Below are positions 21,312-36,568 of a stretch of 64,000 nucleotides of DNA, piece by piece. The position numbers and the translations under genes are program-made. This DNA comes from an uncultured Actinomycetota bacterium (GTDB lineage: Bacteria > Actinomycetota > Actinomycetes > Actinomycetales > Microbacteriaceae). The stretch is taken from positions 143,482 through 207,481 of the forward strand of contig CAWGQN010000001.1 of NCBI GenBank assembly GCA_963824885.1, read 5' to 3'. Each line of letters starts with the position of its first letter. Positions within the stretch are counted from its first letter, which is position 1. The notes beneath the pieces are model-generated. The model did no database searches. It saw nothing but the letters and a program-made list of their open reading frames with translations, and had not been told where the DNA came from.

Positions 21312-21314
21312 TTC

Positions 21315-22343
21315 TCATCCTTCGCGCCGAGGCGGAAACGCGGCGGGCGGTGTCGTGGAAACCCCCCGCTTGCGATCCGCTCTCATCTTGATCAGACTCG
21401 CGACGGTTGCAACCGTCATGGTCACCATAATGACAGTCAACGAGGTCAAAGTGTCGATATCGGGAATCGAATCGACGTGGCGGCCACCGTTAATAAAAGG
21501 CAATTCATTGAGGTGAAGGGCGTGCATAACGAGTTTCACGCCAATGAACGCGAGGACAACGGCGATTCCGAACCGGAGGTATGTCAGGCTATCGAGAAGT
21601 CCTCCAAGCAAAAAATACAATTGGCGCAATCCCATCAGCGCGAAAACGTTCGCAGTGAAAACGATGAAGGGACTCTCGGTGATTCCGAAAATTGCCGGAA
21701 TCGAATCGAGCGCAAACAACATGTCTGCCGAGCCAAGCGCCGCAAAGACAATGAGCATTGGGGTGAAATACGTGCGACCGTTCGAGATCGTTCGAATCTT
21801 CATGCCGTCGAATTCGGATGAAATTCGACAACGATTGCGAATGAATCGAATGAAGCGGCTGTCGTTTTGTGCGTGCGCGCCAGGATCCGTGACCACTTGA
21901 TGCAACGCCGTGACGACGAGAAACACACCGAAAAGGTAGAAAATCCAGCTGAAGTGTGCGATCAGTTGGGCACCGAGGATGATGAAGATACCGCGCAACA
22001 CGAGGGCAATAATGATGCCGACCATTAACACGCGCTGTTGGAACAGCGACGGAACCGCAAACCTCGACATAATCACCACGAATACGAAAAGGTTGTCGAC
22101 ACTGAGGCTATATTCGGTGATCCACCCGGCCACGAATTGACCCGCGTAATCGGCGTTCGAGAAGACGAAAACGAGGATTCCAAACACGAGGGCGAGTGCA
22201 ACGTAAAACCCCGCCCAGACCGCGGATTCCCGCGTCGAGGGAACATGCGGGCGCTTGACTACCACGAGCAAATCGACAATGAGTACGAGCGCCAAGACCG
22301 CGCACGATACGACCTCAAACCAGAATGGCGTGACGAGGGCCAT
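21315..22343 (-). CDS. TerC-family integral membrane protein
   Basis: Multi-pass membrane protein with TEYSLSVDNLFVF and FALDSIPAIFG repeats typical of TerC/Alx. Confidence 0.9.
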   Translation of the reverse strand: MALVTPFWFEVVSCAVLALVLIVDLLVVVKRPHVPSTRESAVWAGFYVALALVFGILVFVFSNADYAGQFVAGWITEYSLSVDNLFVFVVIMSRFAVPSLFQQRVLMVGIIIALVLRGIFIILGAQLIAHFSWIFYLFGVFLVVTALHQVVTDPGAHAQNDSRFIRFIRNRCRISSEFDGMKIRTISNGRTYFTPMLIVFAALGSADMLFALDSIPAIFGITESPFIVFTANVFALMGLRQLYFLLGGLLDSLTYLRFGIAVVLAFIGVKLVMHALHLNELPFINGGRHVDSIPDIDTLTSLTVIMVTMTVATVASLIKMRADRKRGVSTTPPAAFPPRREG

Positions 22344-22510
22344 GGCGGCCTTTCTTGCGGGGGTGCGAGTGGCGCACCTCTCGGAACTCCAATAGGACTC
22401 GGTAGCCGCTAATCATATCCGATGAGCAACGGCAACCTCGCTCGACGATCACGGCCCGCGGTGGTTGACACGGCGACCGTTTCTCGCGACGCAACTCGAG
22501 GTCAGACAAA

Positions 22511-22556
22511 GAAAGCTGGGCGACCCAACCGCGTACGGCGGGGCGCCCAGCTTTAT
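22511..22556 (-). terminator. stem-loop downstream of the first adhesin gene
   Basis: agctgggcg (22514-22522) pairs with cgcccagct (22544-22552). On the minus strand the stem is followed by TTTCTTTG. It lies 12 nt after the stop of the 22568 gene. Confidence 0.6.
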
Positions 22557-22567
22557 CGTGTGAGTCA

Positions 22568-23914
22568 TTAGACCCGTCGTCGTCGAGCCCTCACGATCAA
22601 AATAAAACCGACCGCAGAAACGAGGGCGGCTATCGCAACGATTCCGAATATTTCCGCACCGGTCGATGCCAAGATATTCTGCGGGTCCGGGTTGGCCGGT
22701 ACCGATTGCGGCGTCGTTGTCGGTGGCACTTGCGGTGCCGCGGAAGGAGTTGGCGTTGGAGCAGGGCTCGGTGGGTTCTCCTCGGGTGTTGACGGGTTGG
22801 GGGTGTCCTTGTGCGATGGTGGGACCGGGGTTTCCTTTTCAGGGACGTCGGTACCCACCCCCGTGCCTCCGGTCGTGTTTTCGATTTCTCGCTTCACTTT
22901 TTTCTCTTGTTGATCGCCGGGAGTCGAATACGTAAACGTGTTCTCGTAGTCGATTCGAGGCTGCGATTCGGTGATCGTTGCGTTAATTGACGCGGTAATT
23001 GATTCGTAGGCGTCAATACTCTTCGGAACCTCGAACGTCACCTTTGTCTTGTCGCACGAAGCAACTTTTACCCTCCCGTCCGGCATCGCCGGGTCGTAAC
23101 CGGCGCCCAAATTCTTTTGATAATAGTGATAACTGGCGCTTGCGCAATCAAAGGCCATCCCACTGCCGCCGGGCAACTCGTCGGTGATGACGATCGGACC
23201 GGGTTGCTCGGTGTCCGTCACGGGAAGAGCCAGGCTCCACTCAATCGCCCGTTTCGAATCGGTTTCTCCCTCTTTTTTCGGCGACGCCCAGTACCCCCAT
23301 TTCATTGCGGGCCGGGTCTTATTGGGGGTGGATGGCTCCGATTGAGACGGCCCGCTCGAAGGATTACTATCTCCAATCGGCACCACGTGCCCATTGATAC
23401 TCTTCGTGACTTGTTTCTTCTCGTCGAGCGGTTGTTCCTCGACGCGACGAACAGAGAAATATCCGTCGCCGTGAACGTTCAGCGGATGGTCGGTCACGTA
23501 ATCGGTCAGAGTGAATGTTGCGGTCTTGTCATGCCACGTGCCCGTTGCAATTGCGCGACCGCCGCCGCCCTTTGGCGCCCCCGCGACTTGTTCTTTCAAG
23601 GTAATCGGAACGATGTCGGCGCTTTCCAGACCGTCCGGAAGAACGAGGGTAAACGTGTCGCCCGGTTGAGAGTGATCGGGAACCGCCCACGTGAATTTCA
23701 GTTCCGTCACCGAACCGTTGGGGCCCATTGCCGTCGTGGCTGGGAAACTCGTGATTGCCCCGTCGATTGTTGCCGCCGTGGCGGATTGAGGGCGAACGAT
23801 TGCGCCCGCCGATGCTAGAGAGACGGCTCCCACCGAAAGCGCCGCCATCAACGCCATCGACCGTTTCAAATGATCGGGACGTCGATTGTTTTTGCCCACG
23901 CCACTGTCGCGCAT
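22568..23914 (-). CDS. LAxTG-anchored MSCRAMM/collagen-binding-like surface adhesin (B1)
   Basis: RBS GAAGGAG before the MRDSG start and a signal peptide ...ALMAALSVGAVSLASAGA. The N-terminal Ig-like adhesin region has FTWAVPDHSQPGDTFTLVLP, followed by a Cna-A-like IEWSLALPV...ITDELP block and a Pro/Thr-rich stalk. The C-terminus is LASTG, then a hydrophobic helix and RARRRRV. Confidence 0.85.
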   Translation of the reverse strand: MRDSGVGKNNRRPDHLKRSMALMAALSVGAVSLASAGAIVRPQSATAATIDGAITSFPATTAMGPNGSVTELKFTWAVPDHSQPGDTFTLVLPDGLESADIVPITLKEQVAGAPKGGGGRAIATGTWHDKTATFTLTDYVTDHPLNVHGDGYFSVRRVEEQPLDEKKQVTKSINGHVVPIGDSNPSSGPSQSEPSTPNKTRPAMKWGYWASPKKEGETDSKRAIEWSLALPVTDTEQPGPIVITDELPGGSGMAFDCASASYHYYQKNLGAGYDPAMPDGRVKVASCDKTKVTFEVPKSIDAYESITASINATITESQPRIDYENTFTYSTPGDQQEKKVKREIENTTGGTGVGTDVPEKETPVPPSHKDTPNPSTPEENPPSPAPTPTPSAAPQVPPTTTPQSVPANPDPQNILASTGAEIFGIVAIAALVSAVGFILIVRARRRRV

Positions 23915-24082
23915 TGTGCTCCTTCTCATTCTGACTACCGTGTTCATCGAACGTGAACATCGTTCCGGTCGGATAGAGAAAGAGTCATCGCGGTCGTGAC
24001 GCAATAGGGCTTGTTTTCACCCTGTGCCGGTTAAAGAATCGCCCTCGAGGACCACAGTGTGACGCGCTTTAGAGGGTAAATA

Positions 24083-24122
24083 GGCCGGGCGGCACCATCA
24101 TCCCGAATGGTGCCGCCCGGCC
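24083..24122 (-). terminator. perfect 16-bp stem hairpin downstream of adhesin B2
   Basis: ggccgggcggcaccat / atggtgccgcccggcc with an 8-nt loop catcccga, 16 nt after the B2 stop. The same hairpin sequence recurs at 29871 and partly at 31035. Confidence 0.65.
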
Positions 24123-24137
24123 TCCAGCAGGAGCGCG

Positions 24138-25244
24138 TTAGACGCGGCGCCTGCGGGCCATGACCACCAGAATCAATCCGGCGGCAGCAACGAGTGCCGC
24201 GAGCCCAATGATGCCAATTACCTCAGCCCCGGTTGGTGCGAGCGCGGGAGTGGGAGGCTCGGCACTCGGAACGCCTGCGGGAACGTCGGCGGGAACGTCC
24301 GCGGGAACGACCGACGGGGTGTCGGACGACGCGGGAGTCGTTGTCTCTGGCGTCGTCGTAGCCGGCTGCTCGGGTGCGGCAGGTGGCGCGGTCGCGACCG
24401 TCGTCGGAACACGAGGAGCTTCCGGCGTCGGAGGCGCCACGGGAGTGGGCGTTGACTCAGACGGTGGCACGGGAACCGGTGTCGGTTCCGGGCACGGCTT
24501 CGCAACCGGGACGGGTACTGGTTCCGGGCACGGCTTCGCAACCGGGACCGGAGCGGGCTCGGGACGCGGCTCCGTCACGACGGGAACCGGTGCTGGTTCC
24601 GGGCACGGTTTCGCAACCGGGACGGGTGCTGGTTCCGGGCACGGCTTCGCAACCGGGGCCGGAGCGGGCTTCGGGCACGGAAAGGCCGGCCGAATCGGCG
24701 TCAGGCCCGCTCCTGAGAGTGGCGAGCCATACGTGTGCGTGCTCTCAATGAGAACCGGTGAATTTCCCGCGGTGAACTGATTCGGCGTGTACGTGACCTG
24801 CGAACCGCTATCGGTTCCTTCGCTCACGCGACACGTGGACCCGGTGGGAACACGCGTGGCTCCCGAGCCACCCGGAACGACCGGGACTCGGAGGACGCCG
24901 CCCGGCAATTCCGGGGTACACGACAATCGTGCGACGTAGCCGACGGGAAGAGTATCTGACGCCGTGCCGACAATCTGATCGCGGAATTCCACGGGCGCAA
25001 AGCTGGGACTCGACGAATCGTTGGTGACGACCGGCTTTTCGCCATTCGTGGCCGTCGACGAATTGGCTGAATGTGCGCTTGTCGCCGAATCCGCCGTCGT
25101 CTCAGCGGATGCCGACTGAACGGTTGCGAAAGCACCAATCGCTACGATTGACAAAGAGCCAATCGCAAGCGCCGCCTTCGGCATGACGGACCGTCTCGAA
25201 CGGTTGGGATTTCGATCGGTTTTTTCCACGCCGAATTTGCGCAT
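24138..25244 (-). CDS. LAxTG-anchored surface protein with one two-Cys domain and a Cys/Pro-rich repeat stalk (B2)
   Basis: RBS GGAGGA and a signal peptide ending SASA. One domain is LSCTPELPGG...GSTCRVSEG, followed by five KPCPEPAPVPVA-type repeats. The C-terminus is LAPTG, then a TM helix and ARRRRV. Confidence 0.85.
   Translation of the reverse strand: MRKFGVEKTDRNPNRSRRSVMPKAALAIGSLSIVAIGAFATVQSASAETTADSATSAHSANSSTATNGEKPVVTNDSSSPSFAPVEFRDQIVGTASDTLPVGYVARLSCTPELPGGVLRVPVVPGGSGATRVPTGSTCRVSEGTDSGSQVTYTPNQFTAGNSPVLIESTHTYGSPLSGAGLTPIRPAFPCPKPAPAPVAKPCPEPAPVPVAKPCPEPAPVPVVTEPRPEPAPVPVAKPCPEPVPVPVAKPCPEPTPVPVPPSESTPTPVAPPTPEAPRVPTTVATAPPAAPEQPATTTPETTTPASSDTPSVVPADVPADVPAGVPSAEPPTPALAPTGAEVIGIIGLAALVAAAGLILVVMARRRRV
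24484..24690. repeat. tandem 36-bp (12-codon) in-frame repeats
   Basis: The unit ggttccgggcacggcttcgcaaccgggacgggtact is repeated at 24484, 24520, 24595 and 24631, with diverged units between and after them. On the minus strand they encode KPCPEPAPVPVA. Confidence 0.9.
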
Positions 25245-25457
25245 GGGTATCCTCCACGGGTAGGGGGGTTAACGTGCTCAGGGATTTAAGCGACGTTCGG
25301 GTGATAACGAGGACGATTGTGCCAATCAATGACGCAAATGCAATGAGAACCTACCGGTGGCCTTTCGTGCCGACGAGCGCGCGAATACACCCGCGCAGAG
25401 AGCTCTCGTCCGCGCGTGGTCGCGGCGTGCCGGGACGTGACACGCGCCTCGTTCCCT

Positions 25458-25485
25458 GCGAATCCGGCGCAAAGGCCGGATTCGC
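25458..25485 (-). terminator. 11-bp stem hairpin downstream of the giant repeat gene
   Basis: gcgaatccggc / gccggattcgc with loop gcaaag, about 140 nt after the B3 stop. There is no clear U-tract, so terminator function is uncertain. Confidence 0.35.
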
Positions 25486-25624
25486 GGCACCAATTTCTGC
25501 TCGAGGCTCGAGACAGCGTGACCAAAGACACGCTTTGCATGAGCGCAAAATAATTGAAATAGGTCCCAGTTAATTTCACCCTCAAGTGGAGGATTTTTTC
25601 ACCCTCTACGCGTGATTGTTCATC

Positions 25625-28600
25625 CTAACGGGCCACGGTGGTGATGACTTTCACGCTCGTTTCCGGCAAGAAAACGAAGCTCTGGCTCGGCTCATACGAG
25701 ACGCTTGCCCCAGCCGGTGGGTTGAGCGCTTGAAGCGTGCACGTCGAACCGAGCGAAAAGAAGCCCGTGCTCAGCGCCGCGGAATTTGGCCCAAGCGCCA
25801 GTGTTTCCGACGCTACTGGACCACCGCTCGGCGCGGTGCACGTGAGACTCACGAGGGAGCTCGTTGACGGCGGCAACGGCGGCATCCCCTCGACCACGAC
25901 ATTGGTGACAAATATTTTTCGCGGCGCGTAGTAGTTCGCCACCGCTACGGTCACGGGAGAATCGCCCGCAAGAAACGTCGCGGGACTATACGAGACCGTA
26001 GCGTTTGGCGGCGGAGTCGATTCCACGACACCGCACATTGACCCACTCGTAACCTGTTGCACAACGGGCGTTCCATCGGCTGGCAACTCCACGGGGTAGG
26101 TCACTGCGGGACCGCCAGCTCCCGGCGTGCACGTCACCATCACCACGTAACCGCTTGGCGCTGGTTCGGGGGGAAATCCTTGGACAGCGGTGTGCAATTT
26201 TACCGGCGTTGTCGGAATCACCGTTGGATACGTGTTCACAATGGTCACGTGTGCGCACTGCGGACCGACCGTAAACGTCGCACCGGGTTCATACGTCACC
26301 GTCGCACCCGCGGGCGTCGGTTCATTGACGGTGCACGACGACCCCACCGCAATCCCGAGCGTCGAGACGACCGTCCCGTCCGCGGGAAGCGTCAACACCA
26401 CCGGATCAGTCGGCGTCCCCCCGGGAGGAGTACACGTCAACGTCGCACCATACGAATCAGGAACCGGAACCGGCGGCGTTCCCACGACAGACTTATGAAC
26501 ATTCACACTCACCGTCGACGGAACAAACGAGTTGAAAACCGTAACATGAGTGCCCTGCGGGCCCGCGACAAACGTCGCACCGGGATCATACGTGACCATC
26601 GCACCCGATGGCGGGTTCGGCTCGTCAATCGTGCACGACGACCCCACCGCAATCCCGAGCGTCGAGACCAAGGAACCATCAGCCGGAAGCGTCAACGCAA
26701 CTGGACCAGTCGGCGTCCCCCCGGGAGGAGTACACGTTAACGTCGCACCATACGAATCAGGAACCGGAACCGGCGGCGTTCCCACGACAGACTTATGAAC
26801 ATTCACACTCACCGTGGGCGTAACAAACGTGTTCACAATCGTTACATTCGCACCCTGCGGACCCGCGACAAACGTCGCACCGGGTTCATACGTCACCGTC
26901 GCACCCGCGGGCGGCATCGGTTCATCAACGATACAGAACGACCCCACCGCAATCCCCGGCGTCGAGACCACGGAACCATCAGCCGGAAGAGTCACGACGA
27001 CCGGTTTACCGGGAACACCCACCGGAGGAGTACACGTCAACGTCGCACCATACGATTCAGGAATCGGAACCGGCGGCGTCCCGACGACCGACTTATGGAG
27101 AGTCGCAGAAACCGTCGTGGGCGCATAAGAGTTCAGAATCGTCGCGTTCGCACCCTGTGGACCCACCGTAAACGTCGCACCGGGTTGATACGTGACGGTC
27201 GCACCCGCAGGCGGCATGGGTTCCTCAACGGTGCACGATGACCCCACCGCAATCCCCGGCGTCGAGACCACGGAACCATCAGCCGGAAGAGTCAACGCTA
27301 CCGGCTGACCAGGAACACCGAGCGGAGGAGTACACGTCAACGTCGCACCATACGATTCAGGAACCGGAACCGGCGGCGTCCCGTTAATCGCTTTATTAAT
27401 ATTCACGCTCACTGTCGGCGGCCCAAAGGTATTCGTTACCGTCACTATCGCACCGTGCGGACCAACGGTGAAGGTCGCGGAAGGGGCATACGTCACCGTC
27501 GCACCCGCGGGCGGAGAAGGCTCGTCAACCGTGCACGACGACCCCACGACAATCCCGGGTGTCGAGACGACAGTCCCATCCACCGGAAGACTCACCACCA
27601 CGGACTCGCCCGGAGTCCCACCGGGAGGAGTACACGTCACCGTCACCGCAAACGAATCGGGTACCGGAGTCGGGGGCATCCCCACGACCGCTTTGTGCGT
27701 GCCGACCGTCGCCGTCGCCGGCGCAAACGTATTCACAACCGTCACATCCGCACCCTGCGGACCCGCAACAAAAGTCGCACCGGGCTCATACGTCACGGTC
27801 GCACCCGCCGGAGGGTTCGGCTCGTCAATCGTGCACGACGACCCCACCGCAATTCCCGGCGTCGACACAACGGTCCCGTCCGCCGGAAGACTCACCACCA
27901 CCGGCTGACCAGGAATACCCACGGGAGGAGCACACGTCAACGTCACCGCATACGAATCAGGAACCGGAGTCGGGGGCGTCCCCACGACCGCCTTGTGACT
28001 GCTCACCGTGACTGTCGCGGGTCCAAAGTAGTTCTTGACAATCACATCGATTCCGTTCGTGCCCACGACAAAAGTCGCCCCGGGATCGAACGTCACAATT
28101 GCACCCGCCGGAGGGTTCGGCTCGTCAATCGTGCACGACGACCCCACGGCAATCCCCGCGGTTGACACGACTGTTCCATCTGCGGGAAGAGCCACCATGA
28201 CCGGGTCACTCGGAGTCCCGCCGGGAGGAGTACACGTCACGGTCGCCGCATACGAATCGGGTACCGGTGTCGGGGGTGTGCCCTCGACGGTTTTGTGCAT
28301 GCCTATCGTCGCCGTTGCCGGCGGAAAGGTATTTACTATCGTCACATCTGCGCCCTGCGGACCCGCATCAAAAGTCGCACCGGGCTCATACGTGACCGTC
28401 GCACCCGCCGGAGGAGAAGACTCCTCTATTGTGCACGACGAACCCACCTCAATCGAGGGCGTCGACACGACGGTCCCATCGGCCGGAAGCACGACTATCA
28501 CCGGCTCAGTCGGAATACCGATCGGAGGAGTACACGTCAACGTCGCCGCATACGAATCGGGTGCGGGAGTCGGGGGTGTCCCCACGACGGCCTTGTGGAT

Positions 28601-29740
28601 ACCGACGGTGACCGTGTCAGGTCCGAAGGAGTTGACGACCGTCGCGTCCGCACCCTGCGGTCCTACCGTAAACGTCGCACCGGGTTCATACGTCACGGTC
28701 GCGCCAACCGGAGGAGCAGGCTCGTCGAGCGTGCACGACGACCCCACCGCAATTCCCGGCGTCGAAACCACGGAACCATCCGCGGGAAGCGTCACGGCAA
28801 CGGGATCACCCGGAATCCCACCGGGGGGCGTACACGTCACAGTCGCAGCGTATGACTGAGGCGCTGGAACCGAAGGACTACCGACAATCGCTTTATGGAT
28901 ATTCACGCTCACCGTCGCCGGAACGAACGTATTCGTTACCGTGACAATGACGCCGTGCGGACCGACCGTAAAGGTTGCCCCAGGGGCATACGTCACGGTC
29001 GCATCGGCGGGAGGAGAGGGTTCGTCGGCGGTACACGACGACCCCACCGCAATTCCCTGCGTCGAGACCACGGAACCATCCGCGGGAAGAGTCAGGGCAA
29101 CGGGGTCACCTGGAACCCCACCCGGAGGAGTACACGTTAGCGTCGCACCGTACATTTCGGGCATGGGAACGGTCGGCGTTCCCACGACGACCTTATGCAC
29201 TCCCACGCTCACGGTCGTGACCACGACAATCGTCAACGAAACATCGCCGTTGATCAGATACGTTGTTGTCCCATTGGCGACGGGGTCATTGAGCGTGACG
29301 CCAAAAAAACCGGTCCCCGTGATATTGAGCGGTTGTGTCGTTACAAAGCTTGTCAACGTGCACGTCGCGGTTTGGCCAACCCACGCACAATTCGCCATCG
29401 CCGAGCCGTCGGCTGCCAAGAGATCGAACGCCTCTCCCCCGGTCGACGTCAGCTCGGTCGGCAGCGCGATGGTGAACGTGTCGCCCTCCGGAGTGTTATC
29501 CGGAACGCCCCACACAAAGTCGAGCTTGAAAGAGCTGCCGTTCGTCACCGATGGCGCCGTCGTGGACACGCTTGTGATTGCACCGGGTACGTCCGCCGCC
29601 CTCGCCGCGTGCGTTGGCACGAGTGCACCAATCGAGACAAGCGACAGTGTTGTCAACAACAACGCCGAAAGCGATGAAAGCCACCGCCTCATCCAGCCTT
29701 TTTCGACGGAAACGATCACATTACCGGCGGCGTTTTCCAT
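25625..29740 (-). CDS. giant secreted repeat protein (B3): adhesin-type N-domain plus 12 tandem two-Cys ~100-aa domains, with no C-terminal anchor
   Basis: Uninterrupted frame of 1371 codons from MENAAG (RBS GAGGGGGGA). The signal peptide is MRRWLSSLSALLLTTLSLVSIGALVPTHAARA. The N-domain FVWGVPDNTPEGDTFTIALP is homologous to B1. It is followed by 12 units of ...SYxATLTCTPPxGxPGxPVxxxLPADGxVVSTPGIAVGSSCTxxEPxPPAGATVTYEPGATF.... The protein ends ...VKVITTVAR with no LAxTG motif or TM helix. Confidence 0.9.
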   Translation of the reverse strand: MENAAGNVIVSVEKGWMRRWLSSLSALLLTTLSLVSIGALVPTHAARAADVPGAITSVSTTAPSVTNGSSFKLDFVWGVPDNTPEGDTFTIALPTELTSTGGEAFDLLAADGSAMANCAWVGQTATCTLTSFVTTQPLNITGTGFFGVTLNDPVANGTTTYLINGDVSLTIVVVTTVSVGVHKVVVGTPTVPMPEMYGATLTCTPPGGVPGDPVALTLPADGSVVSTQGIAVGSSCTADEPSPPADATVTYAPGATFTVGPHGVIVTVTNTFVPATVSVNIHKAIVGSPSVPAPQSYAATVTCTPPGGIPGDPVAVTLPADGSVVSTPGIAVGSSCTLDEPAPPVGATVTYEPGATFTVGPQGADATVVNSFGPDTVTVGIHKAVVGTPPTPAPDSYAATLTCTPPIGIPTEPVIVVLPADGTVVSTPSIEVGSSCTIEESSPPAGATVTYEPGATFDAGPQGADVTIVNTFPPATATIGMHKTVEGTPPTPVPDSYAATVTCTPPGGTPSDPVMVALPADGTVVSTAGIAVGSSCTIDEPNPPAGAIVTFDPGATFVVGTNGIDVIVKNYFGPATVTVSSHKAVVGTPPTPVPDSYAVTLTCAPPVGIPGQPVVVSLPADGTVVSTPGIAVGSSCTIDEPNPPAGATVTYEPGATFVAGPQGADVTVVNTFAPATATVGTHKAVVGMPPTPVPDSFAVTVTCTPPGGTPGESVVVSLPVDGTVVSTPGIVVGSSCTVDEPSPPAGATVTYAPSATFTVGPHGAIVTVTNTFGPPTVSVNINKAINGTPPVPVPESYGATLTCTPPLGVPGQPVALTLPADGSVVSTPGIAVGSSCTVEEPMPPAGATVTYQPGATFTVGPQGANATILNSYAPTTVSATLHKSVVGTPPVPIPESYGATLTCTPPVGVPGKPVVVTLPADGSVVSTPGIAVGSFCIVDEPMPPAGATVTYEPGATFVAGPQGANVTIVNTFVTPTVSVNVHKSVVGTPPVPVPDSYGATLTCTPPGGTPTGPVALTLPADGSLVSTLGIAVGSSCTIDEPNPPSGAMVTYDPGATFVAGPQGTHVTVFNSFVPSTVSVNVHKSVVGTPPVPVPDSYGATLTCTPPGGTPTDPVVLTLPADGTVVSTLGIAVGSSCTVNEPTPAGATVTYEPGATFTVGPQCAHVTIVNTYPTVIPTTPVKLHTAVQGFPPEPAPSGYVVMVTCTPGAGGPAVTYPVELPADGTPVVQQVTSGSMCGVVESTPPPNATVSYSPATFLAGDSPVTVAVANYYAPRKIFVTNVVVEGMPPLPPSTSSLVSLTCTAPSGGPVASETLALGPNSAALSTGFFSLGSTCTLQALNPPAGASVSYEPSQSFVFLPETSVKVITTVAR
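25628..29218. repeat. about 300-bp tandem coding repeats (12 units, the central ones nearly identical)
   Basis: Identical strings recur at exact 300-bp spacing. For example, accccaccgcaatcccgagcgtcgagac occurs at 26341 and 26641, and accccaccgcaatccccggcgtcgagaccacggaaccatcagccggaagagtca at 26941 and 27241. Confidence 0.9.
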
Positions 29741-29870
29741 TGTGTCCCCCCTCAGGACGAGGCCCTCGTACACACGTTGGACGCGGTACCTCAATCGAGA
29801 GACGACCAAACAACCAAATCGTGACGCCACGACGCAAAGAAGAATTTTACGAGCGGAGCGCTGCGCGTGA

Positions 29871-29912
29871 AAACCGGGCGGCACCATAATCCCGAATGGT
29901 GCCGCCCGGTTT
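29871..29912 (-). terminator. intrinsic terminator hairpin downstream of adhesin B4
   Basis: aaaccgggcggcaccat / atggtgccgcccggttt, a 17-bp stem with 8-nt loop aatcccga and flanking A/T tracts (TTTT after the stem on the minus strand). It lies 23 nt after the B4 stop. Confidence 0.75.
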
Positions 29913-29934
29913 GACCTTGTGCGTCAGAAACGAG

Positions 29935-30858
29935 TTATGCGTGGCGCCTTCGTCGCATCAATACGACAACGATTCCTAGGCCAACCGCAAGTGCACCCAA
30001 TGGAATCAATTGGCTGCCCGCATCACCGGACGCTGCTAGTTCAGGGGCCGCGGGAGCCTGCTCTACCGGTGCAGGTGCAGGTGCAGGTGCAGGTGCAGGT
30101 GCAGGTGCAGGTGCAGGTGCAGGCGAGGTATACGTATTTGTCACAACGACAAGCGTGTCTACGCCGAATTGCACGGTAACCGTGGGGCTCGGGGAGTATG
30201 TAACGGCGGCTCCCGCCGGCGGGCTGGTCTCGTTGACCGTGCACGATGAATCACTAAGAATTCCCGGAATCACCGTAGCAGGAGCCCCAGGAATAAGGGG
30301 CGGCACCGGAAAACTGATAGGCGCTTCCCCTGGGAGCGCGCACGACAGTGTCACCGCGTAGTCAGCAGGCGCCGGAGCCGGAGCCGTCCCCACGACAACC
30401 TTTTGTATGCCGATAGTCGTTGGCTCCCTGAAGGTGTTGGTCACAGTAACTTGAAAATCTGTGGTAGCCGTAAAGGTGGGGTGGTCAATAGTGACGGTCG
30501 CTCCCACTGGCGGATTTGGTTCGGTTGCCGTACACGACGACCCATCGACGAACCCGGGCACGGTCACCAATCCCCCTGTGGCCGAAAACACGAATGGAAC
30601 CGGCGTGCCTGGCGCGCCGCCCGGGGGAGTGCACGTCACAAGCACGGTAAAATTCGCCCCCGCAGGAGGTGGGCCGACAACTGTTTTCAACACGCCAATC
30701 GTGACGGGGGCCGCCTGCGCAAAAGCCGACTCGTGAACCCCGAGAATTCCTAACGGAACGAGCAACATGCCGGCGAGCGACAATGCGCCGAGTGACGCCA
30801 GAACTCGCCTCACGCGCGGCGCGGGCAATGCAGATTGGCCTTTACTAGTGTTTCGCAT
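29935..30858 (-). CDS. surface protein (B4) with two two-Cys domains, a (PA)9 stalk and a deviant LAASG sorting signal
   Basis: Start MRNTSKG is preceded by CCTGAGGGGGGAC, and the signal peptide ends AFAQA. The domains read ...TVLVTCTPPGG...GSSCTATEP... and ...AVTLSCALPGE...DSSCTVNETSPPAGAAVTY. The C-terminus has PAPAPAPAPAPAPAPAPAPV, then LAASG, a TM helix and RRRRHA. Confidence 0.85.
   Translation of the reverse strand: MRNTSKGQSALPAPRVRRVLASLGALSLAGMLLVPLGILGVHESAFAQAAPVTIGVLKTVVGPPPAGANFTVLVTCTPPGGAPGTPVPFVFSATGGLVTVPGFVDGSSCTATEPNPPVGATVTIDHPTFTATTDFQVTVTNTFREPTTIGIQKVVVGTAPAPAPADYAVTLSCALPGEAPISFPVPPLIPGAPATVIPGILSDSSCTVNETSPPAGAAVTYSPSPTVTVQFGVDTLVVVTNTYTSPAPAPAPAPAPAPAPAPAPVEQAPAAPELAASGDAGSQLIPLGALAVGLGIVVVLMRRRRHA
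30068..30121. repeat. perfect hexanucleotide microsatellite (GGTGCA)9
   Basis: Nine uninterrupted ggtgca units, in frame, encoding (Pro-Ala)9 on the minus strand. Confidence 0.95.
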
Positions 30859-30911
30859 CGTTCGTCCCCCCTCAGGGCAAAAAGCACTCACAATCATGTG
30901 GGCCACTCATC

Positions 30912-30939
30912 ACTTTAACATGAAAGAGCCAAAAATCAA
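30912..30939 (-). promoter_or_regulatory. candidate housekeeping-type promoter of B4 (TTGATT-N16-TAAAGT)
   Basis: On the minus strand the -35 TTGATT is at 30939-30934 and the -10 TAAAGT at 30917-30912. The same hexamer positions are conserved upstream of B5. Not experimentally supported. Confidence 0.4.
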
Positions 30940-31078
30940 CACATCCTGACACGGCACGGCAAATCGCGCGTTGACCCATTGCGTTGTTCCGTAGATTGTC
31001 AATCTACACGTCGTGGTTATGGTCGGCAACGCACCCCGAATGGTGCCGCCCGGTTTGACCTTGTACTTCACGGGCGCG

Positions 31079-32686
31079 CTATACGCGGCGCCTGCTGGTC
31101 ATGACCAACAGGACGATCCCCGTGCCGAAAAGAAACGCACCGAAAACACTGTGCGACGTGAGCGCATCACCGGCGGAGGCAAGAGCGAGTGCGGCAGGCA
31201 CGGTAGCGGGCCCTTCGAAAATGTTCGTCGCCTCAATTGTGACCGCCTGGTCAATCATGAAGTTCCCCTCGCCCGGATCACTCGTGATGACGACACCGGT
31301 ATCGAATGTGGTGTTCGAAATGATCGATTGGCTCGCGCCGTTGGTCACCGTCTCCGTCGCAAAGCAGTGGGAACCGCCGGGAAGCAAAAGGGGGTTCCCC
31401 GTCGGATCGAGCGCGGTTGCCTTTTCACCCGCACGAACGGTCAAGGTGTGGTGATAGAGCGGCAATCGTATCGTTCCTCCCGACGCTGACTCCGGCACGT
31501 CAATTTCGCACGTCACATCGAACGAGAACGAGGCTCCCTGCACCTCGGGCGAATTCGACTCGGCGCCCGACACGGTCTTTGCGACACTGACTGTGCCGGC
31601 CGAATAGTGATTGACGAAATCAATTTGGTTGCCGGTGCCCGCGATGATCGTCACCGGACCTGAGTTCGTCGGGGGAATACTCGGCCCAACCTCGCCAAAT
31701 AGCGGCGCCTCGAAAGCCGTGCACATGGAACCCACTGGCATTCCGCCGATCGGGTCGGAATGAATGATGGTGTCGACGAGCCCCGTACCTGCGATGCCGA
31801 CCGGGAAGTCCGTGAGCCCTGGAACTGGATCTCCAGTCGGTGACACGCATGTCAGAAAAAAATGAAACGTGTGGTGTGCGAAGGCTTGAGCGCCCAGCCC
31901 CGCGAGAGTCTTGGTGATGGTCATAGTAGAAAATTCATTTGTAACCGTCACGTCGGCGCCATTGGGTCCGACGATGAACGTCGCACTGGGGCTGTACGTC
32001 ACGGTCGCGCCCGCTGGTGGCGTGGTCTCATTGATCGTGCACGACGAACCAACGAAGATTCCCGGAGTTGACACGACGGTTCCGTCCGCAGGAAGTGACA
32101 CTTGGACCGCCGGAAGCGCGGTGCCCCCGGCCGGAGTGCAAATCAGCGTTGCATCGAATGTCGCCGGCACGGGCGATGTCGGTGTGGTGTTGACGAGCGC
32201 TTTTTGGGCCCTCACGGCGACTTGCGCGGGAAAGGTGTTGGTGATGTGCACGACGGCACCGTTCGACCCAACATTGAACGCGACCCCCGCGGTGATCGGA
32301 CTCCCATTCAAGTCGTACGTCACGACCGCACCCGCGGGCGGATTGGTCTCGACGATTGTGCACGATGAGTTAGCGGGGACACCACCCGGCACAAAAAAAA
32401 TCGTGCCGTCAGCGAGGACCGTCACCGATGTTACGGTCGGCGAACCACCGGGAGGAGTACACGTTAGAGTCGCCGTGTAGCTGGTTGGGGCCGGCGAGAG
32501 AGGCGTACCGCTGACTATTTTCTGTACTGCAAACGCAGGCCCCTGCGCAAAAGCCGACTCGTGAACCCCGAGAATTCCTAACGGAACGAGCAACAAGCCG
32601 GCGAGCGACAAGGCGCCGAGTGACGCCAGAAGCCGCCTAACGCGCGCCGCCCGCAAGGCAAATTGGCCTCTATTAGTGATACGCAT
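31079..32686 (-). CDS. surface protein (B5) with four two-Cys domains and a deviant LASAG sorting signal
   Basis: Start MRITNRG is preceded by CCTGAGGGGGGGAC. The signal peptide is near-identical to that of B4. Domains include TATLTCTPPGG...NSSCTIVETNPPAGAVVTY, ATLICTPAGG...GSSCTINETTPPAGATVTY, FFLTCVSP...GSMCTAFE and FDVTCEID...GSHCFATE. The C-terminus is LALASAGD, then a TM helix and SRRRV. Confidence 0.85.
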   Translation of the reverse strand: MRITNRGQFALRAARVRRLLASLGALSLAGLLLVPLGILGVHESAFAQGPAFAVQKIVSGTPLSPAPTSYTATLTCTPPGGSPTVTSVTVLADGTIFFVPGGVPANSSCTIVETNPPAGAVVTYDLNGSPITAGVAFNVGSNGAVVHITNTFPAQVAVRAQKALVNTTPTSPVPATFDATLICTPAGGTALPAVQVSLPADGTVVSTPGIFVGSSCTINETTPPAGATVTYSPSATFIVGPNGADVTVTNEFSTMTITKTLAGLGAQAFAHHTFHFFLTCVSPTGDPVPGLTDFPVGIAGTGLVDTIIHSDPIGGMPVGSMCTAFEAPLFGEVGPSIPPTNSGPVTIIAGTGNQIDFVNHYSAGTVSVAKTVSGAESNSPEVQGASFSFDVTCEIDVPESASGGTIRLPLYHHTLTVRAGEKATALDPTGNPLLLPGGSHCFATETVTNGASQSIISNTTFDTGVVITSDPGEGNFMIDQAVTIEATNIFEGPATVPAALALASAGDALTSHSVFGAFLFGTGIVLLVMTSRRRV

Positions 32687-32740
32687 CGTTCGTCCCCCCC
32701 TCAGGGCAAAAAGCACTCACAATCATGTGGGCCACTCATT

Positions 32741-32768
32741 ACGCTAACATGAACGAGCCAGAAATCAA
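32741..32768 (-). promoter_or_regulatory. candidate promoter of B5 (TTGATT-N16-TAGCGT)
   Basis: Positional homologue of the B4 element within the duplicated 5' block. Confidence 0.4.
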
Positions 32769-32824
32769 CACGTTCTGACACGGCACGACAAATCGTGAGT
32801 TGTCGCCCGCTCGCGCCTCGAAAT

Positions 32825-33667
32825 CTACGAGTCGTCCGCTGCGCGCGGTCCCACGGGTACTCCGCCGACGGAATTGCCGGTCGTTGGGTTCGCCGTCGTG
32901 GCGGCGTCGGAATTGGCCGGACACATCATCAGCCTCGAAAGCTCCGACCCCACGTTATTGGCTTCCACGAGCATGTGCGCGCACCGCTCGCACGATTTCA
33001 GGTGTTTTTCCACGCGCACGACGTCGCGTTTACCGAGTCCGTTTCGAACATACGAACCCAAATACTCGAGGGCCCAGTGACACTCCGTACCGCCCGGTGC
33101 CGACGCGAGGTGCGCTCGAATCCACGCTTGCCTCAACCCCTCGCGCGCCCGATAATTGAGCGCGGCAACCGCGTTCGGTTTGATGCCCAAGAGTGGCGCG
33201 ACCTTTTGCGGAGAGAGACTCTCCACCTCGCTGTACCACAGGGCTTGTTGCCATCGAGTGGGCAACAAGCGAAATGCGCGAATCGCGAACTCTCGATCAA
33301 TCGCAGCAGATCTCGTCTCGTCTGATAAGTGCGGATCGGGAACCTCCTCGATCGCGCCAATCGACGTGTCGTGCTTCGCGCGCGCCCACGCAATGGCCGT
33401 GTTTCTGACGGTCGTGAATAAGTACGGGCGAAATGCGAGCGTCGGACCACCACCATTTCGCATCGAGTGGAAGATTTTCGCAAACGCCTCGGAGACAAGA
33501 TCATCGGAATCAAACGACGTCGTATATGATCGTGCAACCGCGGTCGCGGCGCGCGCGTGACGGTGCCACAGCTCGCCAAATGCGCCACTGTCACCCCCGC
33601 GAGTCAGATCGATTAATTCGGTGTCACTGCGTATCACCGGAGGGCCGGTGGGCGCATCAGGGGCCAT
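32825..33667 (-). CDS. ECF-type sigma-70 family sigma factor with fused C-terminal zinc-finger anti-sigma (ZAS, zf-HC2) domain
   Basis: Region 2 reads DLVSEAFAKIF...RPYLFTTVRNTAIAW and region 4 reads LPTRWQQALWYSEVESLSPQKVAPLLGIKPNAVAALNYRAREGLRQ. These are followed by CHWALEYLG...VEKHLKSCERCAHMLVEA (H-x3-C-x2-C). No TM helix follows. RBS AAGGA. Confidence 0.85.
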   Translation of the reverse strand: MAPDAPTGPPVIRSDTELIDLTRGGDSGAFGELWHRHARAATAVARSYTTSFDSDDLVSEAFAKIFHSMRNGGGPTLAFRPYLFTTVRNTAIAWARAKHDTSIGAIEEVPDPHLSDETRSAAIDREFAIRAFRLLPTRWQQALWYSEVESLSPQKVAPLLGIKPNAVAALNYRAREGLRQAWIRAHLASAPGGTECHWALEYLGSYVRNGLGKRDVVRVEKHLKSCERCAHMLVEANNVGSELSRLMMCPANSDAATTANPTTGNSVGGVPVGPRAADDS

Positions 33668-33800
33668 TTGTGGTGGTTCCTTATTTTGTTAAAGGATCGT
33701 GTCTTCTGCGCGTCATGATGCCAGTTTGCCCACCGTTTGTCGATTGCGCACCGCCCATATTCCCGCGCGTTCCGAACAAAAATTCACCCCCGCACACGGG

Positions 33801-34625
33801 TCACGACCTCAGCGACGCTCCATGAAACACTCGATCCAACAGCGCGAAGAGTGGCGCGTCATACGTTGTCAGCCTGGCGCGCGTACTGACCTCGTTGTGA
33901 ACGCCGTCGCCACCAACCGGACCGGTGTGATTCACGTCGAAGTAACTCTGGACGCCCTCGGCCCAATACTCGCGCATTGCTGACCCGGCGTACGTATTCC
34001 TCCATCGACCAGCGGCGAGCGCCGCATTCCACGCGCTTCGCAGTTCAGGCATGAATGTCGCGTCATCGTATTGCAACGCCATTTCCATGAGCGTGTGGCC
34101 GAACTCGTGAACAAACGCGTTCTCACCGTTCAGGTTGTCCATGAGATTGGCCTCTGTTCCCACCGAAATCGGAAGGCTATCAGTCGCTCCCATTCCGCCC
34201 CAATACCTGTCATCGAGAGAAGTACCAAAAATCGCGTTCACTTCGGGAATATTGCTCATCCGCTCGCCGCGCGCCGTGATGACTACTCGAATATTGTGGC
34301 GGTTCAGCGAGGGAACCGGCCACGACGGATACGTCCATAGCAAGGTTCCCATCTCGTTCTTGGCGCGTATCAACGTCGCGTCGTCAACGCTGCGCGAACC
34401 AAGGACGGGTACGCCCCACGCGTCAATATATTTGCCGTAAAAGTTCGTGTCGAGTCGATATTTATCGGCAATATCCCGCGGTACGCCAGAAACAACGGAC
34501 TGGGCCGAGGTTTCAGACGTCGCGCTCGCGCTTATCGATGCGGGCACCGCAACCAGCGCACTCACCGAAAGAAAAGCTGTCAAGGCGAAAAGAGGTCGTC
34601 GATTTATAGCTGACATAAGAGTCAT
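33801..34625 (-). CDS. Tat-signal secreted zinc metalloprotease (HExxH ... ExxAE), paralog 1
   Basis: INRRPLFAL twin-Arg-like signal ending SASA. FVHEFGHTLME zinc motif, with Y and EYWAEGVQSYF about 40-47 residues downstream. The gluzincin / M34-like family assignment is tentative. Confidence 0.75.
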   Translation of the reverse strand: MTLMSAINRRPLFALTAFLSVSALVAVPASISASATSETSAQSVVSGVPRDIADKYRLDTNFYGKYIDAWGVPVLGSRSVDDATLIRAKNEMGTLLWTYPSWPVPSLNRHNIRVVITARGERMSNIPEVNAIFGTSLDDRYWGGMGATDSLPISVGTEANLMDNLNGENAFVHEFGHTLMEMALQYDDATFMPELRSAWNAALAAGRWRNTYAGSAMREYWAEGVQSYFDVNHTGPVGGDGVHNEVSTRARLTTYDAPLFALLDRVFHGASLRS

Positions 34626-34725
34626 CCAATCAATGCACTAGGTTCTTCGGGTCAACCGTGCAACGAGCACCCCATACTGTCTCACACATTCGAGAAAAAA
34701 GGAATACCCAATCCCCCCAAGAAGG

Positions 34726-35586
34726 TCACGTCCTCAGCGACGCTCCACGAAACACTCGATTAAGAAGCGCGAAGAGTGGCGGATCATACTCTTTCAGTCT
34801 GTCCCGCGTGTAAACGTCGTTATTAATGCCGTTTCCGCCAACCGGGCCGGGCCTACCGACGTTGAAATACGTCTGGACGCCTTCGGCCCAATACTCTTTC
34901 ATGGCCGAACCAGCGTACGTGTTATTCCATCGCCCGGTCGCATTCGCCGAATCCCACGCATTCTGCAATTCAGGAGAGAAGTTCGTATCAATGTGTGACA
35001 ACGACATGTCCATGAGGGTGTGGCCGAATTCGTGGACAAACACGTTCTCGTTGTCATAATTGTCGATAAGGTTCGCCTCTGTACCAACGGAGAGCGGAAC
35101 GCGATCCGTTGCTCCCATTCCACCCCAATACGCCTCGTCAAACGTTCTGCCACCACCCCACCGCGTGCGATCATTGAGAACCGAACCGTACTCGGCGTAT
35201 ACCTCGGGAATGTCGCTCATGTGCTCGCCTCGCGCCGCAAGTACGACTCGAACGTTGCGCCGGCTCAACTCGGGAACCGGCCACCAGGGGTACGTCCACA
35301 AGAGCGTTCCCATTTGAGTCCTGGCCCGCACGAGCGTCGCATCGTCGAGCCTGTTAGAGCCGAGAATGGGCACGCCCCACGCGTTAATGTACTTGCCATA
35401 CCAGTTCGTGTCGAGTCCGTATTTATCGGCAATTTCCTGCGGGACACGCGAAACGGAAGCCTTTTCCGAGAGCGCCGGATTCGCACTCGCGCTGAGCGCG
35501 GGGGGAACTGCGGCCAGAGCACCAACGGCACCTCCCGCGGCCAAGAAAACAAACGAGCGTCGATTCACTGTTGACATGACAGTCAT
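34726..35586 (-). CDS. Tat-signal secreted zinc metalloprotease (HExxH ... ExxAE), paralog 2
   Basis: VNRRSFVFLAAGG twin-Arg signal ending SASA, FVHEFGHTLMDM and KEYWAEGVQTYF. Colinear with paralog 1 over its full length. Confidence 0.75.
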   Translation of the reverse strand: MTVMSTVNRRSFVFLAAGGAVGALAAVPPALSASANPALSEKASVSRVPQEIADKYGLDTNWYGKYINAWGVPILGSNRLDDATLVRARTQMGTLLWTYPWWPVPELSRRNVRVVLAARGEHMSDIPEVYAEYGSVLNDRTRWGGGRTFDEAYWGGMGATDRVPLSVGTEANLIDNYDNENVFVHEFGHTLMDMSLSHIDTNFSPELQNAWDSANATGRWNNTYAGSAMKEYWAEGVQTYFNVGRPGPVGGNGINNDVYTRDRLKEYDPPLFALLNRVFRGASLRT

Positions 35587-35668
35587 CCAATCCGTGCACT
35601 AGGTTCTTCGGGTTAACCGTGCAACAAGCGCCCTTCTCTCACACCGGGGGAAGAAAAGCGGGATGATG

Positions 35669-35741
35669 TGACCCCAGCGGGATTCGAACCCGCGTTACCG
35701 CCGTGAGAGGGCGATGTCCTGGGCCGCTAAACGATGGGGCC
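35669..35741 (-). tRNA. tRNA-Glu (anticodon CUC)
   Basis: GGCCCCATCGTTTAGCGGCCCAGGACATCGCCCTCTCACGGCGGTAACGCGGGTTCGAATCCCGCTGGGGTCA folds as a cloverleaf by hand. The 7-bp acceptor stem has one G-U pair, the anticodon loop is CUCUCAC and the T-loop is TTCGAAT. CCA is not encoded. Confidence 0.92.
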
Positions 35742-35843
35742 GTGCTTGCAGCCCCACGAGTATCCCACGATCATCGGGAACAACCAAACTCGGCCATGCC
35801 GAGGGACCTTGCGCGTCCGCTCGGGCGGGTATTAGCTGACACC

Positions 35844-36482
35844 ATGCGACTAACAAAAATGCAACACGCGACCCTTATCCTCGAGGATTCCGGATCGAAA
35901 CTGATTGTCGACCCCGGAACGTTCTCGGCGCCGCTCGACGACGTCGGTCAAACGGTCGCCGTCGTGTTAACTCACGAACACGTCGATCACTGGACGCCCG
36001 AGCAATTGGGGCGCATTTCGAACGAAAATCCGTCAGTGAGAATTTTCGGACCCGCGGGCGTCGTGTCCGCCGCGGCTGGATTCGACGTGAGTGAGGTAAG
36101 CGACGGCGATACCGTCACCGCGGGACCGTTCTCGCTCAGGTTTTTCGGATCGCAACACGCCCTGATTCACTCGTCAATCCCGGTTGTCGACAATGTTGGT
36201 GTGTTGGTCAATGACGCACTCTATTATCCGGGCGATTCGTTTACGATTCCCTCGGGAGTCGACGTAGACACCCTCGCGGTTCCCTCGGGTGCACCGTGGC
36301 TAAAAATCGGCGATGTGATTGATTTCGTCCTCGCGGTTGGGCCCCGGCGCAGTTTTTCGACCCACGAAATGGTGCTGTCTGCTGCGGGAAAGCACTTGGC
36401 GAATTCCCGAATCGAGTGGGCAACGAAGCAAGGCGGTGGAGAATTTATCTCTCTCGAACCCAACGAAACGCTCGAAATCTAG
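35844..36482 (+). CDS. MBL-fold metallo-hydrolase
   Basis: MRLTKMQHATLILEDSGSKLIVDPG...VVLTHEHVDH motif (HxHxDH); 212 aa. Confidence 0.8.
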   Translation: MRLTKMQHATLILEDSGSKLIVDPGTFSAPLDDVGQTVAVVLTHEHVDHWTPEQLGRISNENPSVRIFGPAGVVSAAAGFDVSEVSDGDTVTAGPFSLRFFGSQHALIHSSIPVVDNVGVLVNDALYYPGDSFTIPSGVDVDTLAVPSGAPWLKIGDVIDFVLAVGPRRSFSTHEMVLSAAGKHLANSRIEWATKQGGGEFISLEPNETLEI

Positions 36483-36496
36483 AAGCGCACGTGTTG

Positions 36497-36568
36497 CTGG
36501 GGTACCTGGACTCGAACCAAGAACAACTGAACCAGAATCAGCCGTGTTGCCAATTACACCATACCCCA
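36497..36568 (-). tRNA. tRNA-Gln (anticodon CUG)
   Basis: TGGGGTATGGTGTAATTGGCAACACGGCTGATTCTGGTTCAGTTGTTCTTGGTTCGAGTCCAGGTACCCCAG has a cloverleaf with anticodon loop UUCUGGU and T-loop TTCGAGT. Confidence 0.92.

Follow-up and report, generated by a model that had tools for sequence, protein, structure and literature searches.

How can a sigma factor that carries its own zinc-binding anti-sigma (ZAS) domain be controlled once the membrane part typical of its family is gone? The question is raised by a gene in a 64,000-nucleotide stretch of DNA from an uncultured bacterium of the Microbacteriaceae (GenBank assembly GCA_963824885.1, contig CAWGQN010000001.1, positions 143,482 to 207,481), here called the window, which has a GC content of about 60%. 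The gene (32825..33667, minus strand) encodes 280 residues followed by a TAG stop. A first-pass annotation, made from the sequence alone, read its product as an extracytoplasmic function (ECF) sigma factor fused in one polypeptide to a ZAS domain, with no transmembrane (TM) segment. Actinobacterial fusions of this general kind have been described as groups ECF48, ECF52 and ECF53, in which the zinc finger is followed by one or two TM helices and a proline-rich extracytoplasmic extension of up to ~400 residues that often includes a carbohydrate-binding or other domain, and proteolysis has been proposed as the mode of activation. Their only studied member, SCO4117 of Streptomyces coelicolor, is activated by truncating its extension; attempts by its authors to overproduce it for DNA-binding studies failed. 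How such fusions are held off and activated is still only a model. Here, we report that the window protein is, by homology, a truncated descendant of these actinobacterial 'one-component' ECF sigma factors, and that comparison with its orthologues identifies the short form as a derived, inherited and selected architecture rather than a pseudogene. As a naturally soluble member of 280 residues that keeps a constrained ZAS cap, the protein lends itself to studies of cis inhibition, zinc binding and release, and the locus illustrates an extracytoplasmic signalling protein turned cytoplasmic by simple truncation.

The open reading frame (ORF) begins with ATG behind a ribosome-binding site, AAGGA, and Logan contig L003 encodes an identical protein. 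Residues 33–98 match the Pfam family Sigma70_r2 (PF04542; 35.5 bits, cut-off 24), residues 196–230 match zf-HC2 (PF13490; 38.2 bits, cut-off 22.2, E = 1.5e-9), and the NCBIfam model for ECF sigma factors, TIGR02937, spans residues 29–181 (59.3 bits, cut-off 42.9). Residues 130–176 match Sigma70_r4_2 (PF08281) at 21.7 bits, slightly under the cut-off of 25.7. Taken as a set, the domain matches are far beyond chance. Sigma domain 2 (residues 15–101; 33365..33625, minus), which contains the PF04542 match, is predicted by AlphaFold2 (AF2) as helices with a predicted local distance difference test score (pLDDT) above 90. A linker of ~14 residues separates it from sigma domain 4 (residues 116–189; 33101..33322, minus), which is assigned from PF08281 and TIGR02937 and includes the −35 recognition helix ...NYRAREGLRQAW; residues R173–R179 of this domain are invariant in 109 homologues. 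The protein thus has sigma2 and sigma4 and lacks sigma1 and sigma3, the composition of an ECF (group 4) sigma-70 factor, and ECF sigma chains are the top Foldseek matches of the full-length model.

The second half of the layout is the ZAS domain, comprising helices I–III (residues 195–238; 32954..33085, minus). The sequences CHWALEYLG (residues 196–204) and HLKSCERC (residues 222–229), on which the first-pass annotation had relied, lie directly past sigma2 and sigma4; in the AF2 model, only ~5 residues separate the long sigma4 helix (164–189) from ZAS helix I (195–207). The candidate zinc ligands are C196 and H222-x3-C226-x2-C229. They form the H-x3-C-x2-C motif of ZAS proteins with its fourth Cys or His about 25 residues upstream, C196 lying 26 residues before H222. 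In RsrA, the ligands are Cys-His-Cys-Cys with 26 residues from the first Cys to the His, which is the same spacing. H222, C226 and C229 are invariant in the 109 homologues, and C196 is at least 90% conserved, being replaced at times by His.

It had been conceded at the outset that the HxxxCxxC region might turn out not to be a ZAS fold; both profile and fold comparisons speak for one. A profile of the ZAS segment built from 37 family members and searched against the PDB sequence set retrieved RslA (3HUG_B, E = 1.7e-6), ChrR (0.01), RsiW (0.025) and DdvA (0.07), all of them zinc-type anti-sigma factors; RsrA was not matched by this profile in the same set. AF2 predicts the segment alone as three helices with a pLDDT of 86.5, and helices I–III reach 93–95. 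The 15 best PDB fold matches of this model found by Foldseek are anti-sigma domains only. RslA, in its complex with sigma4 of SigL, superposes with an rmsd of 1.5 Å over 49 columns at 31% identity, and ChrR with an rmsd of 1.2 Å, followed by RskA, RsiW and DdvA. An ECF sigma factor and a ZAS domain in one chain, as first annotated, are therefore borne out by the domain, profile and fold matches together.

Beyond the ZAS domain, little of the protein remains. The C-terminal tail (residues 239–280, 42 residues; 32828..32953, minus), delimited from the AF2 model, hydropathy and alignments, is predicted to consist of a short helix (243–248) and a disordered, non-hydrophobic stretch (252–280), with pLDDT below 50 at 252–272. 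Only 51 residues follow the CxxC motif. A scan of all 280 residues with a 19-residue Kyte–Doolittle window found no TM helix after the zinc finger: the mean peaks at 0.68 over the full length and at 0.41 beyond residue 230, compared with 1.8–2.9 in the TM segments of homologues, in agreement with the absence of a TM segment noted in the first pass. The gene likewise contains no long extracytoplasmic extension, and nothing homologous to one lies downstream. Since the gene ends ~20 residues past ZAS helix III, its product is expected to be a soluble single chain of sigma2, sigma4 and a three-helix ZAS cap.

The relatives of this protein are built differently. Searches returned 12,625 clusters at E ≤ 1e-3, of which 2,348 also pass E ≤ 1e-30; nearly all of the top 150 cluster representatives are 385–1,193 residues long. 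All homologues retrieved come from Actinomycetota (Microbacteriaceae, Nocardioides, Cellulomonas, Saccharopolyspora and others) and all carry the fusion; the best genomic relative, from Compostimonas suwonensis, is 59% identical. Many short 'partial' homologues in the databases are genes cut by contig ends. We took 80 genomic homologue loci and followed each gene to its stop, which left 69 complete genes and 11 that run off their contig. Every one of the 69 has 223–1,208 residues past the CxxC motif and at least one hydrophobic segment, which may be a moderately hydrophobic one ~10–35 residues after the motif, a stronger one farther on (Kyte–Doolittle mean 1.8–2.9), or both. The kinship to actinobacterial fused groups with a TM segment and an extracytoplasmic tail, to which the first-pass annotation pointed, is thus well founded. 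Its remark that the two parts are normally separate proteins undersells the fusion, since this family alone fills thousands of clusters. The layout of the homologues equals that described for ECF48, ECF52 and ECF53, so the sigma–ZAS fusion itself is common and already catalogued. By layout and homology, the window protein is of the ECF48/52/53 type, a label that spans three groups: it has the actinobacterial C-terminal ZAS fusion, and it has neither the TM helix nor the extracytoplasmic extension. What is unusual, judged from these comparisons, is the loss of the membrane part, seen here in a rare but conserved shortened form. We found no description of a TM-less derivative of the actinobacterial sigma–ZAS–TM family in the literature searched.

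Whether the short form is genuine could be judged from its orthologues. In the databases searched, it occurs otherwise only in P0002 and P0003 (267 residues each; 80% and 78% identity), both from metagenomes of the Joint Genome Institute (JGI), so that three sequences in all represent it; the JGI samples concerned are 3300067032, 3300027379 and 3300009817. P0002 and P0003 are complete genes internal to their contigs, and the three proteins end in ..AADDS, ..GGDA and ..GGDV. When the window is compared with the orthologous loci L001 and L002, the TAG stands at the homologous position, and the tail differs by an in-frame indel of 39 nt (an insertion in the window relative to L001). Aligned to the long forms, the tail covers the opening part of their first hydrophobic segment, with Pro250 conserved. 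Reading through the TAG would add 19 further non-hydrophobic residues before a TGA; only ~140 nt separate the sigma stop from the true start of the next gene; and a tblastn search of the window with more than 60 long-form tails returned no remnant above noise. The ratio of nonsynonymous to synonymous substitution rates (dN/dS) between the window and L001 is ~0.09 overall. The proportions of nonsynonymous (pN) and synonymous (pS) differences are 0.087 and 0.63 in sigma domain 2 and 0.15 and 0.82 in the ZAS segment, where they indicate strong constraint, and 0.35 and 0.65 over the last 27 aligned codons, that is, relaxed constraint in the tail. As the outgroups are long without exception, the parsimonious history is one of truncation.

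The first-pass annotation had itself named a frameshifted pseudogene as the outcome that would undo its reading. We reject it: that a recent frameshift, nonsense mutation or sequencing error took the TM helix and tail from a long-form gene is very improbable and largely refuted already, for while the more distant homologues are all long and the identical Logan copy may derive from the same sample as the genome, two further complete JGI genes share both the short form and the stop position, the indel is in frame, selection has been purifying, and the short gap to the next gene holds no lost tail.

What might such a protein regulate? We aligned the upstream regions of long-form genes (77 regions, from other genera) in search of a cognate promoter. 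At least 35 of the 77 contain a GCGT(C/G)AT(G/A)-N16-GTCTC dyad, 43–128 nt before the start codon, which we summarise as GCGTCAT-N17-GTCTC. A position weight matrix (PWM) was built from 29 motif sites, none from the window or L001, and these sites score 15.3–27.1. At 17 bits or more, it yields 93 matches in 643 kb, nearly all in the upstream region of a sigma gene or just past a sigma stop; this clustering around sigma genes makes the motif look like the cognate ECF promoter.

In the window, the best PWM match on either strand is the candidate promoter GTGGCGTCAC-N17-GTCTC (29799..29830, minus; 20.6 bits). It stands, in the correct orientation, 58 nt before the ATG at 29740 of a gene for a large surface protein (25625..29740, minus; 1,420 residues), a putative adhesin with 11 DUF5979 repeats and a Big_8 domain by Pfam. 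That ATG is the likely true start, having a ribosome-binding site GAGGGGGGACACA before it and a signal peptide after it; the listed start, 29887, falls within an intrinsic terminator hairpin (CCGGGCGGCACCAT...ATGGTGCCGCCCGG, then TTTT; 29869..29912, minus). The hairpin parts the preceding 323-residue gene from the adhesin promoter, which lies just past it. Among 300 dinucleotide shuffles of the 128 kb of strand searched, only three reach 20.6 at any position. This figure ignores placement: the match sits in one of the few promoter-competent gaps of the sigma cluster and is correctly oriented. The best match in the L001 and L002 contigs scores 14.3 bits (TTGGCGTAAC-N17-GTCTC) and is located past the sigma stop, ahead of the DUF5979 gene; the site in L001 (2093–2124) is homologous to 29799–29830 of the window. 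Judged from this motif, the sigma factor probably drives at least the large DUF5979 adhesin gene. The pair of factor and GCGTCAT-N17-GTCTC site is readily testable, and it hints at the kind of gene that this large, uncharacterised family controls, at least in one lineage.

Other candidates did not hold up. The upstream regions of four DUF5979 genes are homologous by alignment; two retain the motif intact, and it has diverged in the paralogues of 545 and 323 residues, where the PWM gives −1.1 and a non-significant 8.2, respectively; we do not claim these two genes as targets. A possible GAAC-N16-CGTT promoter upstream of the 545-residue gene was dropped, being not conserved upstream of the 323-residue paralogue and unrelated to the family motif. 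The second-best PWM match in the window (43007–42976; 15.8) is not significant, its score being matched or exceeded in 90 of 300 shuffles.

Extra copies of the family motif adjoin long-form sigma genes across L005–L084; examples lie at L007 3833 (minus), L030 3801 (minus), L043 5570 (plus) and L058 5625 (plus). Some stand on the opposite strand, 40–140 nt upstream of the copy that faces the sigma gene, and others on the same strand directly past the sigma stop. Several have no protein-coding gene to drive, their neighbours being nagA in the same direction or sdhB/sdhA in convergent orientation. Over the 150 nt past such copies, hairpins abound and GGGGGAGG strings recur; the ORF lists reveal no consistent gene behind them and Rfam no known RNA. 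A small RNA or a small ORF transcribed by the sigma factor is a possible product of these copies.

The promoter of the sigma gene itself appears to have changed. A consensus scan finds a sigma70-like candidate, TCGACA, 17 nt, TG-CATCAT (33715..33743, minus), whose −10 element is overlapped by a degenerate copy of the family motif, CATCAT-N17-ATCCT (33693..33724, minus). The motif copy at this place scores 4.7 in the window and 9.1 in L001, against 15.3–27.1 at the sites from which the PWM was made. About 90 nt upstream of the gene are nearly identical in the window, L001 and L002, while synonymous sites within the gene are saturated. These comparisons suggest that the short-form lineage swapped ECF autoregulation for a housekeeping-type promoter.

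From these elements, we propose how the protein could work. The ZAS cap would bind sigma4 in cis and hold the factor off, in the way that helices I–III of RslA bind sigma4 of SigL. As there is no membrane or extracytoplasmic part, the releasing input would have to be cytoplasmic. Release would most likely come from the Cys3His zinc site being oxidised or lost; an alternative would be degradation from the disordered C-terminal tail, mimicking the site-2 cleavage product of the long forms. The freed sigma factor would then transcribe the large adhesin gene from GGCGTCAC-N17-GTCTC, its own gene having apparently traded positive autoregulation for a housekeeping-type promoter. We offer this explanation as a whole tentatively, giving it a little less than an even chance. 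Two observations were counted for cis capping: RslA was crystallised on sigma4 of SigL as a fragment of only ~60 residues, and the modelled spacing between sigma4 and the ZAS domain is ~5 residues. The full-length AF2 model is also closer to sigma chains from anti-sigma complexes (rmsd 10–12 Å) than to RNA polymerase-bound sigma factors (22–25 Å), which is weak evidence given a predicted template modelling score (pTM) of 0.54. Self-inhibition and redox or zinc sensing, both suggested in the first pass, have only indirect backing, from the intact and constrained ligands, the RslA-like fold and the compactness of the model.

The proposal can be set against several known systems. The first is SCO4117 and its group ECF52, with ECF48 and ECF53, which share with the window protein an actinobacterial ECF sigma factor and a zf-HC2/ZAS domain directly past sigma4, and whose extension is thought to be inhibitory. 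The window protein differs from them in having no TM helix, proline-rich region or carbohydrate-binding tail; lacking the TM helix and any part outside, it should be unable to sense outside the cell or to be freed by intramembrane proteolysis. The second is SigL–RslA of Mycobacterium tuberculosis (PDB 3HUG). Among solved structures, RslA comes closest to the C-terminal domain, with an HxxxCxxC site and helices I–III that bind sigma4, but it is a separate, membrane-anchored protein, whereas the ZAS domain of the window is predicted to be soluble and joined to sigma4 by a loop of ~5 residues. In SigR–RsrA of Streptomyces and SigH–RshA of Mycobacterium, the ZAS domains are soluble, as here, and these redox-sensing pairs are regulated by conformational change on oxidation; they are, however, two polypeptides with thiol-homeostasis regulons, whereas the window has one chain and, on its promoter motif, an apparent adhesin target. 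By analogy, the window protein would resemble a covalent SigR–RsrA or SigL–RslA pair in function.

Three further systems are partly similar. In IutY of Pseudomonas putida (ECF243), an ECF sigma factor and an anti-sigma part likewise share one polypeptide, which is constitutively active without its extension; unlike the window protein, IutY is proteobacterial, has a FecR-type membrane-spanning anti-sigma part in place of a ZAS domain, and is processed by Prc and RseP. CorE and CorE2 (ECF238) are soluble ECF sigma factors in which a short Cys-containing C-terminal extension modulates activity in the cytoplasm; in CorE, it is a cysteine-rich activating segment of ~20 residues and not an anti-sigma fold. 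In ECF270, whose anti-sigma factors are soluble ZAS proteins, some sigma factors are fused, and there too the extension of a soluble sigma factor would modulate its activity in the cytoplasm; these members are catalogued but uncharacterised, the group belongs to other phyla, and the likeness of the window protein to ECF238 or ECF270 is drawn by analogy.

Several points weigh against the proposed cis-capped switch. The full-length model is compact, but with its low pTM the docking of the ZAS domain on sigma4 or sigma2 can be proposed at most. Classical anti-sigma domains include a fourth helix; the AF2 model has no helix IV, only the six-residue helix 243–248 ahead of the disordered tail, and inhibition could for that reason be weak. 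Redox sensitivity cannot be read from the presence of a ZAS motif, ChrR and RslA differing from RsrA in this respect, and the apparent target, an adhesin gene, is not a thiol-stress regulon. The C-terminal residues of the three orthologues resemble none of the known Clp degrons. The adhesin promoter is assigned from motif conservation, and the shuffles noted above equalled its score somewhere three times in 300. Finally, the degenerate autoregulatory motif at the sigma gene would fit a mainly transcriptional control. Given a ligand set and spacing like those of RsrA, we nevertheless rank a thiol or zinc switch first, above both tail proteolysis and a constitutive sigma factor. In its most specific version, truncation would have made a TM 'one-component' sigma factor into a soluble, single-chain cytoplasmic sensor. 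Oxidation of its thiols or loss of zinc would free the covalently attached three-helix cap, so that the adhesin would come under intracellular redox or metal control, and the promoter of the sigma gene would have been rewired to the housekeeping type. We consider this version possible but on balance doubtful.

The missing helix IV and TM segment also suit a simpler alternative, namely that the truncated ZAS domain no longer inhibits. The sigma factor would then be constitutively active, its zinc domain would only stabilise sigma4 or the overall fold, and the sigma70-like promoter would set its activity. The weakly constrained tail and the decay of the autoregulatory motif to 4.7 bits under a conserved TCGACA-17-CATCAT promoter fit this view. 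Against it stand the strong purifying selection on the ZAS segment, all four candidate ligands included, and the finding that ~60 residues of RslA suffice to bind sigma4 of SigL. Moreover, in systems controlled by regulated intramembrane proteolysis, such as those of RseA and RsiW, the soluble anti-sigma fragment is known to inhibit until it is degraded. We judge constitutive activity unlikely.

In another alternative, truncation of the gene has produced what site-2 cleavage would yield as an intermediate from the long forms, and cytoplasmic proteases of the Clp or Lon type remove the ZAS domain by way of the tail. Activity would then track protease availability or adaptor signals and not the redox state. 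The gene does stop within a region that in the long forms makes up the first hydrophobic segment, residues 252–280 are predicted to be disordered, and a proteolytic activation has been proposed for ECF48, ECF52 and ECF53. Yet the tail has no recognisable degron, its sequence and length vary across the three orthologues, and no conserved protease gene stands beside the sigma gene, where the neighbouring HExxH proteins are secreted and absent from L001. Control by proteolysis seems slightly less likely still than a constitutive factor, and the cis-capped zinc switch remains the reading that we prefer.

Turning to the surroundings of the gene, the window and L001 share the order tRNA-Gln, Lactamase_B_3 (on the opposite strand), tRNA-Glu, HExxH pair or its remnant, sigma–ZAS and DUF5979. 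The tRNA-Glu(CTC) and tRNA-Gln(CTG) genes that flank the Lactamase_B_3 gene lie at 35668–35741 and 36496–36568 (minus) in the window and at 13–87 and 840–913 in L001. Long-form genes occupy other contexts, such as nagA upstream in Agromyces and Microbacterium; given the tRNA adjacency and a context unlike that of the long forms, the sigma–adhesin cluster may be an island or a relocated duplicate. In Microbacterium and Agromyces, the long form has a conserved housekeeping neighbourhood (glyA/folD, nagA), and a ZMP/ZTP riboswitch is found ~3 kb upstream of the sigma gene (L013, L014, L015, L020, L024, L032, L035, L039, L040 and L042, at about 400–970, minus).

The first-pass annotation placed the sigma gene at the head of the adhesin genes and directly downstream of a protease pair. 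The location is correct, the gene standing between two paralogous HExxH genes (33801–34625 and 34726–35586) and the DUF5979/Big_8 genes; the protease link itself is not conserved. The HExxH proteins are secreted, give only weak Pfam matches (ATLF, M90) and have no sequence relative in the PDB. In L001, about 1040–1100 between tRNA-Glu and the sigma gene, only a remnant of an HExxH 3' end survives (...LFDRVFRGSALK, compared with LLDRVFHGASLRS at 33801–33850 of the window); with the pair lacking there, the protease genes were lost in that lineage and are dispensable for the sigma–adhesin unit. Up to the listed ATG of both HExxH genes runs a near-identical element of ~40 nt, TTGCACGGTT(G/A)ACCCGAAGAACCTAGTGCA (34626–34668 and 35587–35630, minus), a diverged copy of which lies at about 975–1010 in L001. 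It combines an imperfect inverted repeat with a possible TTGCAC-17-TAGTGC promoter, which would imply leaderless or near-leaderless mRNAs.

Downstream of the sigma gene come the surface-protein genes. The first, directly adjacent, is the 545-residue DUF5979 gene (31079..32686, minus), identified by Pfam, with a LASAG-type sorting signal; its product is 41% identical to that of the gene downstream of sigma in L001. The second is the 323-residue DUF5979 gene (29935..30858, minus), identified by Pfam and its C-terminus, whose product combines a LAASG sorting signal with an (AP)n repeat. Its run of ten Ala-Pro units comes from a simple tandem repeat (about 30040–30100) that would read as (VQ)n or (TC)n in other frames and is a possible site of length variation. 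Among the surface proteins of 22568–32716 (minus), those of 478 and 368 residues have sorting signals of the LAxTG type (LASTG and LAPTG), while the 1,420-residue protein has no C-terminal sorting signal or anchor; Pfam detected no sortase domain among the ten ORFs scanned (20487–36482). The terminator hairpin (CCGGGCGGCACCATTCGGGAT-ATGGTGCCGCCCGG) recurs behind three surface-protein genes, at 29869–29912, about 24060–24105 and about 31040–31070 (minus), one copy being partial, which indicates that the genes were duplicated together with their 3' flanks.

Some listed gene starts in this region call for revision. Translation of three surface-protein ORFs probably begins at the ATGs at 29740, 32686 and 30858, and not at 29887, 32716 and 30906, respectively, which lie too far upstream; each of these ATGs has a G-rich ribosome-binding site (GAGGGGGGAC...) before it and a signal peptide after it. 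The listed start of the ORF at 35703–36482 overlaps a tRNA gene, and its true start is probably the methionine of MRLTK... near 35844.

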